Shown one piece after another: positions 3,901 through 50,509 of a stretch of DNA of 64,000 nt; positions within the stretch are counted from its first letter, which is position 1, and each line of letters begins with the position of its first letter. Source of the stretch: a virus. The translations under genes and the position numbers were made by a program. Where the stretch lies: positions 19,017 to 83,016 of IMG/VR virus record IMGVR_UViG_3300032046_000015; one strand, given 5' to 3'. Under the pieces are notes generated by a model. The model made no database searches. It was given only the letters and a program-made list of their open reading frames with translations, and was not told where the DNA came from.

Positions 3901-4303
3901 CTGACTTGGATAGAACATCCAATTCACGTCCTGCTCCGCATCCCATCACTAACACATCCTGTCCTTGGATGTATGGACTGATGGCCGCAAAATCTCTTAT
4001 GAATAAATCTGTAACATCAATCAGCCCAGGGCTGAAATAGTTTTCACCATACTCTTCATCTGTTGGCATTGATGTTGCCTTCCCAAGTTGCGTGTAGTTC
4101 AGACCACGCTTTATCATCTCATCTCTCAATATATTAAACTTGTTCAGAAGTGTAGCCACAGTCAATCCATCGGTGGACTTACCATCGCCAGCCCCTCCTT
4201 CAGTTAACAGTGCATACAACTGGTGACAGCGCCAATGTAAGTTCAACAACTCCTGGTTGTCCACCGCTGCTAGACTGTCTTTTGTGATATCGTTTATTTT
4301 CAT
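947..4303 (-). CDS. Polyprotein: SAM methyltransferase + nucleotidyltransferase-like + ATP-dependent DNA ligase + LigD phosphoesterase-like + XkdF-type prohead protease
   Basis: VLVMGCGAG/GVDNS/FDTVLSMHTLEH (MTase); LVGGS..HDIDMLIR (Pol-beta fold); EQKYNGWR, ILDAD, VFDVLYYDG, EGAVAK, WSKIK (ligase); HTDIR..EFWFDGKLLKGRWIF (PE-like); LVTGIVLEP..IEKAAHDFL..VVESWIAP..GFSIKG (XkdF). Confidence 0.8.
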   Translation of the reverse strand: MKINDITKDSLAAVDNQELLNLHWRCHQLYALLTEGGAGDGKSTDGLTVATLLNKFNILRDEMIKRGLNYTQLGKATSMPTDEEYGENYFSPGLIDVTDLFIRDFAAISPYIQGQDVLVMGCGAGRELDVLSKSGFNVEGVDNSITAMKLCGQHNHKVKKEDVNKLSYPDGAFDTVLSMHTLEHLSDPNAAIDESLRIARMRAIHLVPLGKRLDLTHKREFKSMDDLRSCMAGYEVAKYIFRTEDNNAVVVFDKTAEAPAQIFNGLGDMVLCPGYINLVGGSIKQQEPHDIDMLIRQDNPDSALEVKVRNQIPEGMRHLVHYVYHASGPHDDHIPLYDLVAVLRPEAKRINVSKADTLKPLQRFIPLKTAGGYSQQEYFTPEEFNTGWAEALLKEKIGIDVEQKYNGWRTVLEADSADKTLIFFEDSKDDRSKQFPSLVDDLKAIGQGVILDADLGAVHDNGRPVARKDLAAWAGNQVVPVSGQLTLADGSKASIIAHVFDVLYYDGQDLHSKPWTERRGILEDLFGKYDFKFMKITPKHVVDNKAALLKIISDVSKQPGSEGAVAKAVNSDYPLTGQTPAWSKIKNLVEIKVQVLSRQTVSGSPRTWNYTVAYEDDKGKLVTLGKTFNTNLDAPDGSIITLGVEEIIPEYDNVADVWKITAVVPKVRDREVGSTKAENIKSIVQRADEGNVLQADPETRAALLESGFKVEKRLAIRKQTEGQLDFKAGDSGTAILQTHERGLTEDQVKLLGGTFHFGVDPIKLTPVQITKLDQIAKGNWTAAIANAADGDSSQLSSLIKGIDKTTLNKDQLKLLALVEPVSIHTDIRMRPGTAPYWEGGEGFTPGNQFQINKFIELDPTHKILANFKTARSDEGGAASGQVIQGPLSWMNVGANKPQSFPPGAVGSTTNAWSRLTIIDKIKWKAGTQDPHYKEFWFDGKLLKGRWIFQFVPVGPGRREWMIARPADQEFPNNPETAKPPATAPTQKAYNTTIIKIDTVKRLVTGIVLEPETFDAQDQIYDAPVIEKAAHDFLAEYNKGSKTGVMHEDYSRPIEVVESWIAPITMMIGDQQVKPGTWIMTVHVTDNETWKQVENNQLTGFSIKGMAVARRLGPERSVA

Positions 4304-11708: not shown

Positions 11709-13081
11709 TGCATTGCCCTGTGTAACGATTGGGGTTTGGGTGTGGGTGCAAATTGCAGTGTTGCATCTGCATTGTGCTGGCCAAGCGTGCATGGCACGCA
11801 CTGTGTAGAAAACACATGCCAGTGGGGTGTTGTGTCGGGTACACATGCGCTGAGGTGTCGTGGCGCCATGGCGCAGGATTTTTTATTGCGCACACAACCA
11901 CCAAGCACACAAGACACACTGGCGTCACTGCGCTCATCCGGTTCATCGATGGCGTCAATGGTTCCAGATGCTAGCAGACCTTGCATATGGTCTGTAGCAC
12001 TTGCATCTCTGAAAGCCTTCTGTCCCCATATGTTAAAAGGTATTGACATGTGTAAGCAGAACGTCCTTGGCCTGTCCATCCCTGTACTGGTCTGTACGCT
12101 ATCCCCAGGTGTTAACTCCTCTGAACAGGTGGCATGGGTTCTGGTGCCAGGTGTTAACTCCTCTATGGATGTGTATGTAGAACGTCCTTGGTCTGTAGCC
12201 TTGTCCCCTGAAATAATTTTTTTCATCATGGTGTTTTTATTTATTGGCTCAGGCTGACATGTGTAAGCAGAACGTCCTTGGCCTTGCCGCCCAGGTGTTA
12301 ACTCCTCTGTACAGATGAGCATTGGATCATTGGCCTTCACCCGATGATTGACACCCTCATTCCTGTAGCCATCTGGCGCACCTGAAAGCCTTATGGAATT
12401 GTCCATGTTCAAAATGTGGCCGTTTGATTTTGAATGGAATGTGTAAGCAACACACGCAGTACACGCAATTGTGTGTACTACATTTTTCTTATCGTGGTGC
12501 TTCTGTGCGTCATCTCCTCCATGCTTCATGTTGCGTGGGCGTGTGTATGTTACAGGATGGGGTTGTGGCTTTGGAATTACACATTGAGTGCATGTTGAGA
12601 ATGCAGTGCTTGTTGGTATTACACACTGTGCTTCTGTGCATAATGCGCACATAATGCGCTGTGTGTAATTTGTGTTGACCACCTGGTGGACACATAGACA
12701 CATGGCACATATGTGTGGTGCTAGACAACTCAAGCACTTTGACTCAAGCACAGCAAGCACAGCAAGCACAGCAATCACACAATCAGCGCCAGCGTGCTTC
12801 TCTACCATGACAGGGACAAATTCAACTTCATTGTGTTCGGATACATCGCAACCAACAGACATCAGAACAAAGGCAGAGGATTGAGCAAGGACAAAAGAAT
12901 TGCACAAGTCATCAACCAAACAACAGTGCGACCGCTCACTGTGTATATGTTTGGCGATGTTGTTAGCTTGGGATATGGGCTTGGGCGATTGGTAGGAACA
13001 GAAGATGTGGTTGTTCTCTCCTGTATGATTGGGATAGGATAAGAATGAGGATTGATCTTTGTTTCTGTTTACTGAGCTCAT
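11705..13081 (-). CDS. Atypical 458-codon Cys/His-rich ORF spanning a repeat region; coding status uncertain
   Basis: Long open frame, AAAGGT before ATG, ATGA coupling to next ORF, but composition unlike other genes. Confidence 0.3.
   Translation of the reverse strand: MSSVNRNKDQSSFLSYPNHTGENNHIFCSYQSPKPISQANNIAKHIHSERSHCCLVDDLCNSFVLAQSSAFVLMSVGCDVSEHNEVEFVPVMVEKHAGADCVIAVLAVLAVLESKCLSCLAPHICAMCLCVHQVVNTNYTQRIMCALCTEAQCVIPTSTAFSTCTQCVIPKPQPHPVTYTRPRNMKHGGDDAQKHHDKKNVVHTIACTACVAYTFHSKSNGHILNMDNSIRLSGAPDGYRNEGVNHRVKANDPMLICTEELTPGRQGQGRSAYTCQPEPINKNTMMKKIISGDKATDQGRSTYTSIEELTPGTRTHATCSEELTPGDSVQTSTGMDRPRTFCLHMSIPFNIWGQKAFRDASATDHMQGLLASGTIDAIDEPDERSDASVSCVLGGCVRNKKSCAMAPRHLSACVPDTTPHWHVFSTQCVPCTLGQHNADATLQFAPTPKPQSLHRAMQ
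12044..12308. repeat. Interleaved direct repeats
   Basis: TGACATGTGTAAGCAGAACGTCCTTGGCCT at 12044-12073 and 12255-12284 (degenerate copy ~12169-12194); CCAGGTGTTAACTCCTCT at 12105, 12147, 12291. Confidence 0.9.
12745..12771. repeat. Tandem 9-mer CAAGCACAG x3
   Basis: Read directly. Confidence 0.85.
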
Positions 13082-43052: not shown

Positions 43053-43127
43053 CTGACTCTATCTCTGTCAGGCTGGAAGCAAGTCAACTTTCCAGCGACA
43101 TCCGCTGTGTGTAGCGGATGTTTCGAT
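43053..43127 (-). ncRNA. Type II hammerhead ribozyme HH1 (variant core CUGACAGA)
   Basis: AUC-GAAA-CAUCCGCU/AGCGGAUG-UC|GCUGGAA/UUCCAGC-CUGACAGA-GAU; loop UGACU pairs with downstream AGUCA; predicted cut 43097/43096. Confidence 0.75.
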
Positions 43128-44565: not shown

Positions 44566-44577
44566 GTGTTAAATTCT

Positions 44578-44650
44578 GGTGACTTGCCATCATCAGGCCA
44601 ACGGTGGTCAACCATTGACGACATCCGCTGTGTGTAGCGGATGTTTCGGC
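44578..44650 (-). ncRNA. Type II hammerhead ribozyme HH2
   Basis: GCC-GAAA-CAUCCGCU/AGCGGAUG-UC|GUCAAUGG/CCGUUGGC-CUGAUGA-U-GGC; loop UGAC with downstream GUCA; predicted cut 44620/44619. Confidence 0.88.
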
Positions 44651-44657
44651 ATGCTTG

Positions 44658-45730: not shown

Positions 45731-45811
45731 CGTTGATTTGTCTCATCGGCACGCAGGTAATCAACGCTGCGTGGACAGAGGAATGTGGCTGGTCACTCCT
45801 CTGTTTCGACA
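45731..45811 (-). ncRNA. Type II hammerhead ribozyme HH3 (variant core CCGAUGA)
   Basis: UGUC-GAAA-CAGAGGA/UCCUCUG-UC|CACGCAG/CUGCGUG-CCGAUGA-GACA; 8-bp pseudoknot CGUUGAUU/AAUCAACG; predicted cut 45774/45773. Confidence 0.85.
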
Positions 45812-45816
45812 GTTGA

Positions 45817-47865
45817 TCAAATATGTTTGATCATGTGTTTCTTTAGGATGTTTAGAATAACAGCAGGCATCTTGTCCATGTCATTGATCACAGCATACTC
45901 TGGATAGAATTGCTTAACATAGTCAACGTCCAAACCTATGCCAATCAACTCTATTCCTGCTTTGATCACTTTTCTAATGACATTATTCAGATCAGATTTC
46001 AACAAGCTCAAATCGGTGCCCCACTCCAGATTAGGTTGGCCATCCGATAGCACTATCAGCATCTTGCGTTTTTCTGTACGCTCAGCCAAACGTTTGGCTG
46101 CGAACATGATGCTTTCATTATCACAATTACAACTACTACTATTATTATCCAAACCAAGTAATCTATACTTGGCCTGATTATAGTTGTCGTTGAAGGATTT
46201 TGCGATGTAGTGTCGCAATCCCCAATAACGGTTGTAGTGACCATGAGCTTGTTCATAGTGCTTCTGAAATTCTTCAAACTTCTTATCGCCAGACTGTTTG
46301 GCATCGCCACAACGTCTTGGATGTAGTGCGTTGAAGCCAATAATTTCTATGGCAATCCCCAGCTGATTAAGTATTTCAGACAAGATCAACGCTGTCTGCC
46401 TTGCCATATGAATCTTGTTTCCTGCCATGGAACCAGAACAATCAATCAATAGCGTCACAGCAGTATCCAATTCCACTTTAGCAGATGGCTGAAAGAAAAT
46501 TTGTTTGCTTCCAGTCCTTAACCTGTACAGTGCACCGTTGTCCAAGCTGCCGCTATCCTGATCCATGACAGCGCCACGATGAGTGCGTGATCTCAACAGT
46601 GAAATGATCTTTGATCGCAACGCAGACACATTCCGTTTGACAGAATCAAACTCAGCCTTGTAGTGATCGTGTCCAACCGCAAGTGGTGTGATCTCTCTGT
46701 CCAACTTGACAGCTTCAGGATGAGGCAAATGGCGATGCTGTGATTTAGCTGTGTCCATTGCCTTCTGTGCCAACTCATCCTTTGTAGCGTTCATCAGATC
46801 ATCCGTGGTTTTGGTAGTCTCAGCTTCGTCGATGAAATCAGCGATGTCCTTTGGTTCTATTGAGTGATTGTAGTCTATATCACCACCGCTGGACTTATCC
46901 GTCAACTTTTTGCCATCAGATTTGGCATCGCTGCTGTCGTTGCTCTCAACCCCTCTCCCTTGACCTGGGCCATCTTCACCATCCTCATCCTCTTCATCGC
47001 TGTCGCCATCGCTGTCGCTATCCTCTCCAGCGTCACTCTCCTCTTCACCACTCTCCTCTTCAACGTCTTCACCCTCATCCTCTTCATCAGCACCACCGTT
47101 GCCCTGTCCACTCTCCTCTTCACCACTCTCCTCTTCAACATCATCCGGTTGAGGAGTGTTCTTGCCCTTGCCTTTGCCGCTATCCTTCTTGTTATCTTTT
47201 TGCTCTTGAGCTTTCTGCTGTTTAGCTTGCTGTTCCTGCTGCTGTTGTAACTCCTCTTTATAATCGCCCAAAGCCTTGAGTGTGTCTCTGGCTAGATCAA
47301 AAGCCTGTTGGTAATCGGATACAGAATTGGCTTTTGACCAAGTTGGCCTTAAAGCCTCAACGATGGCCTGTGCCTCTTTAGGTAACCACGACACGTCATA
47401 ACCCATCAACCTGCCCAAGATACCCATGCCAATCGCTTTGAACGGATCAATCTGATCTCTATTCCTTTTGGCAGATACAAAACCATGATCATTGGCAGCT
47501 TTGATGTTCTGCGAACAGCCAATCAACTCTCCAGATAGTTCACGTTCAATCCTATAATCCTCAAACACGTTGAACAACTGCTTGAGTTTATTGTCCGTTG
47601 TGTTCTTCAGCAAATCCAACGGTGTAGTGCGCCCAGCTTCTTGTGCCTTGCGCTGTACTTCCACGTGCTTCCACTCATGATCCAACAATCCTTCCAACAC
47701 ACTCGCATCCGCATCCTTCATATCGTCAGCATTGACAGGGATGTTAATGGTGTCTATCATGTTAGTATCACACCTGAAACCAGACAGCTGAACGTTGATG
47801 TTAAAGTTGCGTGAGAACGTCCTTGCTATCTTTGTCCATCTTGTGTCCAATCTGTTACCAGCCAT
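45817..47865 (-). CDS. CobT-like VWA protein with N-terminal HExxH domain and acidic linker
   Basis: LDHEWKH..NVFEDYRIE; LLIDCSGSM MIDAS; VLSDGQP; IGIG. Confidence 0.88.
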   Translation of the reverse strand: MAGNRLDTRWTKIARTFSRNFNINVQLSGFRCDTNMIDTINIPVNADDMKDADASVLEGLLDHEWKHVEVQRKAQEAGRTTPLDLLKNTTDNKLKQLFNVFEDYRIERELSGELIGCSQNIKAANDHGFVSAKRNRDQIDPFKAIGMGILGRLMGYDVSWLPKEAQAIVEALRPTWSKANSVSDYQQAFDLARDTLKALGDYKEELQQQQEQQAKQQKAQEQKDNKKDSGKGKGKNTPQPDDVEEESGEEESGQGNGGADEEDEGEDVEEESGEEESDAGEDSDSDGDSDEEDEDGEDGPGQGRGVESNDSSDAKSDGKKLTDKSSGGDIDYNHSIEPKDIADFIDEAETTKTTDDLMNATKDELAQKAMDTAKSQHRHLPHPEAVKLDREITPLAVGHDHYKAEFDSVKRNVSALRSKIISLLRSRTHRGAVMDQDSGSLDNGALYRLRTGSKQIFFQPSAKVELDTAVTLLIDCSGSMAGNKIHMARQTALILSEILNQLGIAIEIIGFNALHPRRCGDAKQSGDKKFEEFQKHYEQAHGHYNRYWGLRHYIAKSFNDNYNQAKYRLLGLDNNSSSCNCDNESIMFAAKRLAERTEKRKMLIVLSDGQPNLEWGTDLSLLKSDLNNVIRKVIKAGIELIGIGLDVDYVKQFYPEYAVINDMDKMPAVILNILKKHMIKHI
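47034..47139. repeat. 31-bp direct repeat in acidic linker (VEEESGEEES x2)
   Basis: Copies at 47034-47064 and 47109-47139. Confidence 0.8.
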
Positions 47866-47891
47866 TGTCTTGTCCTTTCATGTGTTATTTT

Positions 47892-47965
47892 CTGACAACC
47901 TATCATCGTCAGTTACCAGAGGTCAACCTGGTAAGACAGCCGCACTGTGTACGGCTGTTTCGATA
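47892..47965 (-). ncRNA. Type II hammerhead ribozyme HH4
   Basis: UAUC-GAAA-CAGCCGU/GCGGCUG-UC|UUACCAG/CUGGUAA-CUGACGA-U-GAUA; predicted cut 47935/47934. Confidence 0.88.
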
Positions 47966-47967
47966 TG

Positions 47968-49155
47968 TCAGTATCCAAAGATGCGCTGGACGATGGCTTT
48001 CACATAAGTCTCATCCTCTTTGGATAGTTTGTTAAGAACAGCAACCTGCGCTGCCTTGTGAACTCCCAGTTTACCTATCTTGTTTGCCCACATGATAAGT
48101 CTGCGAGTGGACAGCGTGCAGTGGCATTCCTCATGGATCAATCCGTTGCGAACATACTTGGCCACTTCAACCAGCTTCTTGGCCACATCCAAACCAACAT
48201 TGGCTTTTCTGTGTATTATCATGGCTTCTTGCGTTTGTGGAATGTAATCCTGAAAAATCACCGTTCCAAACCTATCCAAGAAGGCTTCATTGAGTGTGTT
48301 AGTGCCAACATATAATCCAGTGTCATCACCGTGTCCAGTCGTGTTCGCTGTGGATATGATTCTGAAATTCTCATGCGGCTCAACAACCTCACCATGATTC
48401 GCAGTCAATACCAATTGGCCACTATCTAGCACAGACTGTAACACGAACAGGATTTGCGGTGTGGCGGCATCTATCTCATCTAACAGCAACCAGTATCCTC
48501 TCCGCATGGCATCCGGCAGGACACCATCTTTCCAAGAGACAATCGCTTGATTTGTGGATGTCGCTATTTCTACAACCTTTTCACCTACAAAATCGGATGC
48601 CCTGATATCACCATGTAGATTCACACGCTTAACAGGTTGGTTGAGCAGCGCAGCCAATTCCTTAACAGTCGCTGTTTTACCGCAACCTGTCGGGCCAACC
48701 ATCAGAACGTTATCACCTTGCTCTATCCCCAAGGCCAACATTTCCGTGACCGCTGGGTCAAGATCAAAATTTGGATCGTGGTTTGGGATGTGCTTCTTAT
48801 CTATCTCATCCAAACCGTTATCCGGTCTCAAGGACAACTCCGCAGCCCCAAACGTTAATGCCAACCCGTTTGCCACCGCTGGGCTTACAGTTGGCTCAAG
48901 TGTAATAACGTTTGCGCCATTCTCTGGCTTATCAGCGTTGCCATTTAAGTTGTTCAGTTGCTTACCTTTTTGAGCCATGCTTATTTGGTTGCTACCAAAC
49001 AGACTAATCGTGGGTGCCCCAAGATGTTTAGCCTTGTAAGTATGGACATCCATTCCATGTCTGCTTTTGAGGTGGACGGCCAGAGTATGGTACCATCTAC
49101 CACACTCTTGGCATTCGATCATCTCATTGCCATTCCTGTCTAACTTTCCAGCCAT
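47968..49155 (-). CDS. MoxR-family AAA+ ATPase (CobS/CbbQ-like) with N-terminal C2H2 zinc finger
   Basis: CQEC..HLKSRH; GPTGCGKT, LLDEID, TANT, NEAFLDRF, STRRL. Confidence 0.9.
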   Translation of the reverse strand: MAGKLDRNGNEMIECQECGRWYHTLAVHLKSRHGMDVHTYKAKHLGAPTISLFGSNQISMAQKGKQLNNLNGNADKPENGANVITLEPTVSPAVANGLALTFGAAELSLRPDNGLDEIDKKHIPNHDPNFDLDPAVTEMLALGIEQGDNVLMVGPTGCGKTATVKELAALLNQPVKRVNLHGDIRASDFVGEKVVEIATSTNQAIVSWKDGVLPDAMRRGYWLLLDEIDAATPQILFVLQSVLDSGQLVLTANHGEVVEPHENFRIISTANTTGHGDDTGLYVGTNTLNEAFLDRFGTVIFQDYIPQTQEAMIIHRKANVGLDVAKKLVEVAKYVRNGLIHEECHCTLSTRRLIMWANKIGKLGVHKAAQVAVLNKLSKEDETYVKAIVQRIFGY

Positions 49156-49183
49156 GTTCTTATCCTCTTTTCATGTGTTATTT

Positions 49184-49258
49184 TCTGACAACCTATCATC
49201 GTCAGCGTTTGGGTGGTCAATCCCAAACGGACACCCGCTGTGTAGCGGATGTTTCGGC
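49184..49258 (-). ncRNA. Type II hammerhead ribozyme HH5 (weak stem II)
   Basis: GCC-GAAA-CAUCCGCU/AGCGGGUG-UC|CGUUUGGG/CCCAAACG-CUGACGA-U-GAU; predicted cut 49230/49229. Confidence 0.8.
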
Positions 49259-49261
49259 TTG

Positions 49262-49540
49262 TTACTCTGCTATTGTTACTAAAGTCAAATATCCACCGCC
49301 ACGTTGCTTGTTTGTTTGCGTAACATCAAAACCTATGCGCCTCAACATATCCTCTTGTCCAACTGGCCCACCACCTATTCTCCAACGTCTGCCAGACTTG
49401 GGTGAGTATGGACTGCGCCAACTGCCTCTCAGCCCACCTATTACATCAGATATGGCTGCGGCACCGTTTGATTGTTCGATGATTGACTTTATATCCTCTT
49501 TAATCTCAGCAATCATCTTCAATTCCACTTCTTGCCTCAT
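49262..49540 (-). CDS. Hypothetical protein flanked by HH6 and HH5
   Basis: 92 aa, GAAAGGA RBS. Confidence 0.6.
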   Translation of the reverse strand: MRQEVELKMIAEIKEDIKSIIEQSNGAAAISDVIGGLRGSWRSPYSPKSGRRWRIGGGPVGQEDMLRRIGFDVTQTNKQRGGGYLTLVTIAE

Positions 49541-49574: not shown

Positions 49575-49657
49575 GGTGACTTGCTTCATCAGCGTCCAGG
49601 TTGTCAACCTGTGACGTACAAGCCAGTGTGTTATTTCAACACCAGCTTGTTTCAGCT
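49575..49657 (-). ncRNA. Type II hammerhead ribozyme HH6 (GUA cleavage triplet)
   Basis: GCU-GAAA-CAAGCU..GGCUUG-UA|CGUC(A)CAGG/CCUGGACG-CUGAUGA-AGC; loop UGAC with downstream GUCA; predicted cut 49617/49616. Confidence 0.88.
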
Positions 49658-49984
49658 TTGTACTCTCTCACATGCGCCACTTTCAGCCCCCATGCGTAAA
49701 CGATTACACATGACGCTCAGCTTATCTGACGCTGTGTTTTCCCTTGTCCCTGTCTCTCTCCTCTTTAAGTCTGTGGGCTTGCTCCCCTGTCCCCACCAGG
49801 CTACACCACTCACCTGTCCACTCCGCACCGTGTGGAAAACTGATTTTTGCTTACTGCCAGACTGGTCTAACTGGCCTCAGGCTTCACCCGTTTTTTGCGT
49901 CAGGCCTGGAAAATCTTAACTTGTCAAAGTGGTGTGGGCGTCCGTTTATCCCGCTCAGGCTTCACTTGTGCACCGCACTATGTC

Positions 49985-50509
49985 TATAAAGTAAAGCGAA
50001 AAACAAGCCGTCTATCCTATATCTTATATATTTTCATCAAAAACTATCCCAATTTTGGCACAATTTGATATCAATATAGTGTGTAATACGAACAATAATA
50101 TGACAATTTTGTACAAAAGACAAAATAATTTTGACATCAAAATTTCCCATATCATAGTATCCCAAATTATAACAATATTGATATAAATTTCTTTACTATC
50201 TCATTGTCCATAACTGTTGTCCAATCTGATGAGCATTCACAATTTATAACAATTTTGATAGTAATATGTGTCCACTTTGATAGTATGTTTTCTTTACTTC
50301 ATAGTAAAGAATCTTTACCAATTTGATTGTGTAATGTTACCTATTTACCCCAACAAATAGTAATTTTTTCTTACCAATCATTACACACATAATATTGTCT
50401 ATAAATGGCGACACAGACAAGATTGGTATTTGACAACAACCTGTCTGTGTAATCGTTGTGTTGATTGACTAAGAAAATTTTAGCTGGCAACTAAGAAAAA
50501 AGTAGCCAA
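49985..50509. promoter_or_regulatory. AT-rich non-coding region (candidate origin/promoter region)
   Basis: No ORF; visibly AT-rich; imperfect repeats TTATAACAAT(A/T)TTGATA x2, TTTCTTTACT x2, ACTAAGAAAA x2. Confidence 0.5.

Follow-up and report, generated by a model that had tools for sequence, protein, structure and literature searches.

The hammerhead ribozyme HH5, predicted upstream of a CobS-like gene in an uncultivated phage, is chimeric: it combines a 5′ module of the HH2 type with a 3′ module identical to that of HH4, as the initial annotation of this DNA had proposed, and its halves thus derive from different neighbors. Recombination between ribozyme copies appears to be the best explanation of HH5, because HH5 is a mosaic and its positional counterpart in a relative (contig L203) is self-consistent. 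On balance we favor a reading, somewhat probable rather than secure, in which short-tract recombination homogenizes the modules of these ribozymes, HH5 is a probably weakened scar, and the six hammerheads of the array likely cut an operon transcript.

The DNA belongs to a virus record of 83 kb that is complete, carries terminal repeats, and stems from a sediment metagenome. Coordinates refer to the window, which is the whole 64,000-nucleotide stretch of this record that was analyzed, and all array features are on the minus strand. When the six ribozymes were aligned with MAFFT, the structure was too poor for a covariance model, and a descriptor scanner was used instead, with the following elements: GAAA, a stem III hairpin closed by A-U, a cleavage nucleotide other than G, a stem I hairpin, and CUGANGA or near variants. 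The scan found six type II hammerheads in the window and the same six in the entire 83-kb genome, all co-oriented and together spanning 6.6 kb, as shown in Table 1. Stems I and III are at least 8 bp long in all six (range 8–12 bp, with differing sequences) and are closed by loops, whereas stem II is open; in 30 dinucleotide shuffles of the genome there was no hammerhead with both stems of at least 8 bp.

Table 1. Positions of the ribozyme array and its genes in the window, and of repeated intergenic cassettes in hammerhead-free relatives (coordinates of the respective contigs).
Feature	Position	Strand	Details
HH6, first ribozyme of the array	49575..49657	-	triplet GUA; stem II GCU/AGC; predicted cut after 49617
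92-aa ORF between HH6 and HH5	49262..49540	-	without homologue in relative L203
HH5, upstream of the CobS-like gene	49185..49259	-	5′ strand AGCC; predicted cut after 49230; stem III 9 bp; stem I 8 bp with loop AUUGACCA; stem II mismatched, 1 pair in register
20-nt HH5 tract, identical to HH2 44631–44650	49239..49258	-	stem II 5′ strand, GAAA, 5′ half of stem III
37-nt exact repeat, copy 1 (HH5 3′ module)	49169..49205	-	
CobS/MoxR-like AAA+ ATPase, 395 aa	47968..49155	-	N-terminal zinc-finger region; starts MAGK
Predicted excised CobS-like mRNA, 1295 nt	47935..49229	-	predicted from hammerhead chemistry
HH4, between the CobS-like and VWA genes	47892..47965	-	stem II UAUC/GAUA, 4 bp; predicted cut after 47935
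37-nt exact repeat, copy 2 (HH4 3′ module)	47876..47912	-	
CobT-like VWA protein, 682 aa, partner of the AAA+ gene	45817..47865	-	starts MAGN
HH3	45731..45811	-	core CCGAUGA; stem II UGUC/GACA; predicted cut after 45774
HH2	44577..44651	-	stem II UGCC/U-GGCA; predicted cut after 44620
HH1	43053..43127	-	core CUGACAGA; stem II AUC/GAU; predicted cut after 43097
Repeated cassettes, L207	9700–10010 and 11195–11460		
Repeated cassettes, L204	9630–10010 and 11140–11300		
Repeated cassettes, L206	3890–4060 and 5245–5490		
Repeated cassettes, L208	8300–8475 and 10130–10270		

Each ribozyme can be described as three modules: a 5′ module (stem II 5′ strand, GAAA, and stem III), stem I, and a 3′ module (CUGANGA, stem II 3′ strand, pseudoknot strand, and leader). 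The conserved core of HH4 and HH5 consists of CUGACGA, GAAA, and the cleavage triplet GUC, and core variants are present in HH1 and HH3. Against the Rfam model Hammerhead_II (RF02276), HH4 scores 35.7 bits and HH5 23.4 bits, both below the gathering cut-off of 37 bits. A pseudoknot of 4–7 bp is formed between a UUGAC-type loop I and a GUCA-type tail located 3′ of stem II; in HH3 it covaries, giving an 8-bp pairing. Next to the core, stem II has 3–4 bp in HH1–HH4 and HH6, and only the 10.1–11.1 pair in register in HH5.

HH2–HH5 begin 6–10 nt past the upstream stop codon, HH1 begins 40 nt past its stop, and HH6 is preceded by an 856-nt non-coding stretch. All six end 24–45 nt ahead of the next start codon, and HH2–HH5 occupy the gap between a stop codon and the next ribosome-binding site. 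The genes among the ribozymes code for the 92-aa ORF, the CobS/MoxR-like AAA+ ATPase, the CobT-like VWA protein, several small ORFs, and a sigma-like protein. A promoter and terminator scan across the array gave no enrichment, and a DNA search of a phage database with the array gave no match. We note that the 856-nt stretch (49654–50509) separates a primase-like gene from HH6; it is AT-rich with repeated promoter-like words and then GC-rich over its last approximately 340 nt, where the motif GUGAAGCCUGAG occurs twice. The last 337 nt upstream of HH6 fold no better than shuffles (z = 0.5). Elsewhere in the window, at 12044–12317, there is a local cluster of direct repeats unrelated to the ribozymes, with an exact 30-nt pair (12044–12073 and 12255–12284) and a second family at 12104–12317.

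The two copies of the 37-nt repeat noticed in the initial annotation are indeed identical: no match was found in 100 shuffles, and none is expected by chance. The repeat reaches 40 nt with one mismatch (family D2) and takes in the core strand CUGACGA, a bulged U, GAUA as the 3′ strand of stem II, the strand that forms the pseudoknot, and the leader as far as the ribosome-binding site. At its other end, HH5 (49258–49239) is identical to HH2 (44650–44631) over 20 nt, a match to HH2 in the 5′ half having been noted in the annotation, and 18 nt of this tract are found in HH1 too. HH1 and HH2 in turn have an exact tract of 30 nt in common (43096–43125 and 44619–44648). Of the three exact dispersed repeats of at least 30 nt in the window, two lie within ribozyme modules, and the exact tracts of 37, 30, and 20 nt are restricted to these modules. 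Taken module by module, the 5′ module of HH5 is 87% identical to that of HH2 and 84% to that of HH1, and its 3′ module is 100% identical to that of HH4, compared with approximately 75% in other pairs of paralogues. The identity of stem I among the ribozymes is at most 62%.

The two halves of HH5 do not fit each other. Its stem II strands, AGCC and U-GAUA, form a single Watson–Crick pair, whereas UAUC of HH4 forms four with U-GAUA, in agreement with the mismatch and the cross-fit first described for this locus. Because its halves are mismatched, HH5 would probably be a slow or impaired cleaver. Perreault et al. found that changes in pseudoknot spacing or in the length of stem II strongly lower the cleavage rate, in the case of spacing by orders of magnitude (PMC3088659). 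RNAfold predicts an alternative register of the HH5 stem II, AGCC/GGUU with a 5-nt bulge, by which HH5 could stay partly active.

Duplication of a whole segment, comprising a gene together with its ribozyme, was considered and ruled out, because the homology does not reach the upstream genes. The ORFs upstream of HH5 and HH2 have no protein similarity, and the DNA similarity of HH5, HH2, and HH1 stops at the ribozyme, with none upstream of the common 5′ modules into the genes. At the other side of the ribozymes, ATGGCTGG (MAG) is the start of both the CobS-like and the VWA gene, in the window (47862–47865 and 49152–49155) as in L203 (749–757 and 2026–2034); the common MAG start had been pointed out for the window. 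This common start does not hold for the hammerhead-free relatives, and the copied unit of ribozyme and leader may once have included the first codons.

We compared the array with relatives of the CobS-like protein, of which there are hundreds on phage-sized contigs of 80–110 kb; the closest proteins are P0002 and P0003 (contig size 94 kb). Protein searches of IMG/VR with the window protein, P0003, and P0002 found no close relative, and among the matches listed in a search with a 25-protein alignment, the relatives were 30–37% identical and had no hammerheads. A lineage-specific pattern of the 3′ module had no match in IMG/VR and nine in GTDB genomes, all of them chance matches. The sole ribozyme-bearing relative reached, by a metagenome scan with P0003, was L203, a metagenome contig of 4.3 kb encoding a CobS-like protein with 58% identity. 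The same three junctions are occupied by type II hammerheads there, one ahead of CobS, one between CobS and VWA, and one behind VWA, and two of them pass the Rfam cut-off (44.2 and 42.6 bits). We note that the third hammerhead of L203 is separated from the VWA stop codon by a 176-nt gap with a GC-rich hairpin (4062–4237), and that the counterpart in the window is located 9 nt past the stop codon.

The CobS-upstream ribozyme of L203 has an intact stem II, AAUC/GAUA, with the same GAUA 3′ strand as HH5. The two ribozymes also have the same stem I loop, which in the window is found in HH5 only. Because the L203 counterpart is intact and has the same 3′ strand, GAUA appears to be native to the CobS leader and the 5′ module of HH5 to have been replaced; we infer that the 5′ module is the changed part, with the polarity taken from L203 as the single outgroup. 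Between the first and second ribozymes of L203, the third pair of stem II changes from A-U to G-C, and the change is compensated within each ribozyme; read across the gene, it gives only a G-U pair. Two 3′ modules of one genome are more similar (100% in the window, 83% in L203) than 3′ modules at matching positions of the two genomes (75–78%), which, judged from these identities, is a signature of concerted evolution. Exact tracts in the 5′ or 3′ modules next to divergent stem I sequences occur elsewhere as well, with lengths of 24, 21, and 18 nt in the array of L127 and of 20 and 17 nt in L203.

We propose that the six hammerheads would cut one long operon transcript into gene-length messages, each with a stem I hairpin at its start and a stem III hairpin at its end. 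The bounds of the CobS-like message that had been suggested, 49229–47935, agree with the predicted cuts; the message would have a 5′-OH and the HH5 stem I hairpin at its head, and its tail would be the HH4 stem III hairpin with GUC and a 2′,3′-cyclic phosphate. The 5′ and 3′ modules would be kept alike within the genome by short-tract recombination, either gene conversion or exchange with co-infecting relatives, with stem I free to diverge. On this proposal the stem I and GAUA strand of HH5 would be native to the CobS leader, and its 5′ module would have been overwritten by a module of the HH1/HH2 type, with HH2 the likely type of donor; its 3′ module now matches that of HH4 at every letter. 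The fit between the HH5 strand and the HH4 strand would be a side effect of this common module and not a selected device for circularization.

The same fit had prompted, as one of two options, the idea that the excised AAA+ message reconstitutes a ribozyme across its ends and circularizes. In this reading, after cleavage at HH5 and HH4, the 1295-nt CobS-like message would re-form a nicked hybrid hammerhead (GAUA/UAUC), which would be sealed by reverse catalysis or by an RtcB-type ligase to give a circular mRNA. We consider this very improbable, and hold in equally low regard the extension that the circle would be translatable and the 37-nt repeat kept as a guarantee of the fit between HH5 head and HH4 tail. 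The topology of a type II hammerhead is correct for such a hybrid, and 5′-OH and 2′,3′-cyclic phosphate ends suit ligation. The stem II of the hybrid is perfect over 4 bp and extends to 7 bp with one mismatch. To put this pairing in context, we scored all 36 combinations of stem II 3′ and 5′ strands with a threshold of at least 3 bp, which was reached by the own two strands of a ribozyme in five of six cases, by adjacent ribozymes across a gene in two of five, and by all combinations of different ribozymes in 10 of 30. As had been described, the AAA+ and VWA units cross-pair well and the other three poorly; however, pairing between neighbors is at the background level, and the HH5–HH4 fit arises because the 37-nt repeat gives both ribozymes the GAUA strand. 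The HH4–HH3 fit relies on this same strand, and the stem II strands of the array are a small set of related tetramers. Cofolding of the HH5 head with the HH4 tail gives approximately −3.9 kcal/mol, not counting the penalty for closing a 1.2-kb loop, equal to the value for the products of HH4 itself and the same as for any cleaved hammerhead here. For natural head and tail fragments, cofolding does not tell halves of one ribozyme from halves of different ones. Beyond the contact of 4–7 bp across 1.2 kb, the ends of the CobS-like unit have no further complementarity to each other. Both the 92-aa ORF and the CobS-like gene end in a stop codon 6 nt from the G12 of the next hammerhead (49255–49264 and 47961–47970), so a terminating ribosome would cover stem II and the GAAA strand, and with them the junction; translation could for this reason modulate cleavage. 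The compensatory change in L203 gives a Watson–Crick pair inside each ribozyme, whereas strands from the two sides of the gene form only a G-U pair. All members of two unrelated phage arrays, L127 and L196, have GCC/GGC or ACC/GGU as stem II, and cross-pairing is therefore trivially universal there. Circular products were raised as a possibility for phage arrays by Perreault et al. (2011), who sought spliced or circular products and detected none (PMC3088659). The cross-pairing is thus better read as a by-product of the repeat than as evidence for a circle, and circularization finds no support in these comparisons.

The remaining alternatives concern the identity of the leaders and the integrity of the DNA itself. 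The exact identity of the two leaders could reflect selection instead of recombination, for matched processing and translation initiation of the CobS-like and CobT-like partners. The two genes form a conserved adjacent pair in all relatives examined, both start with MAG in the window and in L203, and the two leaders of L203 are also alike (83%). The L203 pair nevertheless differs at several positions, which shows that exact identity is not required, and the identity in the window includes spacer positions that differ between the two phages. Selection also leaves unexplained the HH2-type 5′ module and broken stem II of HH5, and the 30-nt tract that HH1 and HH2 have beside unrelated genes, and we regard it as unlikely to be the main cause. 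Less likely again is mobility at the DNA level, in which the 37-bp direct repeats would let the CobS-like gene loop out as a 1293-bp mini-circle, be deleted, or be swapped between co-infecting phages, in the manner of the PeSL cassettes. Repeated intergenic cassettes do shuffle genes and make mini-circles in T4-type phages (Arbiol et al., 2010; PMC2839356), the gene order of the window and L203 breaks at HH5, and the Logan graph collapses at the repeat, so that the contigs are compatible with a circle. However, the unitig of the CobS-like gene has a depth of 28.7, nearly equal to its flanks (30.3 and 32.6), no deletion joint is present in the Logan contigs, the CobS-VWA adjacency is kept in every relative, and 37 bp is a short substrate for recombination. 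Finally, repeats longer than the word size of an assembler break assembly graphs, and a mis-join at the repeat might have produced a chimeric HH5 artificially. This is scarcely credible, given that independent Logan unitigs of the source run have no differences across the 5′ half of HH5 and the CobS-like gene, that the only equal-depth path using all the pieces is the order of the window, and that L203 has the same gene order. Contigs of a second sediment run cover only small pieces, which are near-identical. We also note imperfect tandem and dispersed repeats at 47034–47145, inside the acidic, low-complexity coding sequence of the VWA gene, where the Logan contigs break.

Recombination between ribozyme copies, the reading that we prefer, bears on gene order. 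The order primase, CobS, VWA is kept in L204, L206–L210, and L002, and CobS and VWA are adjacent in every relative examined. Because this order is conserved and the AAA+ gene is half of a conserved pair, it is not a free cassette. In L203 the CobS-like and VWA genes are still flanked by hammerheads, and the gene order of the window and of L203 breaks exactly at the CobS-upstream ribozyme: upstream of it the window has the 92-aa ORF, and in L203 this place is taken by an unrelated 101-aa ORF that follows a homologue of gp188, a gene that in the window is located after HH3. Recombination within ribozymes would be expected to leave a chimeric ribozyme where gene order breaks, as is seen here in one comparison. 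The ribozyme fills the whole intergenic gap, however, and any intergenic breakpoint would fall within it. Of the earlier proposal that recombination within ribozymes shuffles gene cassettes, the exchange of modules is borne out by the HH5 mosaic and its intact L203 counterpart. The shuffling of cassettes is the thinner part: the CobS and VWA content between ribozymes is unchanged in L203, and the unit upstream of the CobS hammerhead differs, with the gp188-like gene relocated. With one relative compared, cassette exchange between ribozymes is plausible.

The relatives L204, L206–L210, and L002, whose CobS-like proteins are approximately 45–50% identical, have no hammerheads. These hammerhead-free relatives have near-identical promoter- or terminator-like intergenic cassettes before both the CobS-like and the VWA genes (Table 1), and the presence of such cassettes at the same junctions fits a role of the ribozymes in making separate messages.

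An array of co-oriented type II hammerheads flanking phage genes is a layout known since 2011, when clustered hammerheads of this type were described in phages and prophages, processing of long transcripts was proposed, and spliced or circular products were considered (Perreault et al., 2011; PMC3088659). The function of such arrays was still listed as open in a 2019 review (PMC6765202). As in those arrays, co-oriented type II hammerheads are clustered here over a few kb on either side of single genes or short gene blocks, a pseudoknot joins loop I to the 3′ tail, and natural core variants stand side by side. Unlike in those arrays, one member has a broken stem II and halves from different neighbors, exact tracts of 30 and 37 nt link the members, and a relative has an intact hammerhead at this position. 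The instructive detail here is a naturally mismatched hammerhead in a known type of array.

Among repeated intergenic cassettes that act as recombination sites, the closest analogues are the PeSLs of T4-type phages (PMC2839356; Comeau et al., 2014, PMC4122927), which are short, stand at gene boundaries, and provide homology usable for recombination, the shuffling of gene blocks, and loop-out. PeSLs are DNA elements made of a promoter and a terminator, whereas the repeated unit here is predicted to be a self-cleaving RNA with its leader; shuffling is supported here by a single comparison, and no mini-circle is seen in the contigs. With the circular RNAs of viroids, satellites, and retrozymes the locus has in common a unit between two hammerhead cuts that carries a permuted but complete ribozyme and has ends suited to ligation. 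In those RNAs the two flanking ribozymes are identical, the ends are held together by extensive self-complementarity, and circles have been demonstrated; here, in contrast, the flanking ribozymes differ, the ends share 4–7 bp, and the unit is a protein-coding message of 1.3 kb.

The locus is a natural experiment, in which one ribozyme lost its stem II complement by a module swap and the counterpart in a relative stayed intact. Comparison of HH5 with this counterpart bears on the importance of stem II in the pseudoknotted type II form, and on whether every cut in an array is selected. The mosaic suggests that units of ribozyme and leader act like the repeated promoter cassettes of other phages, being homogenized inside each genome and available as sites of recombination. 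Confirmation in many arrays would link RNA processing elements to the mosaicism of phage genomes.
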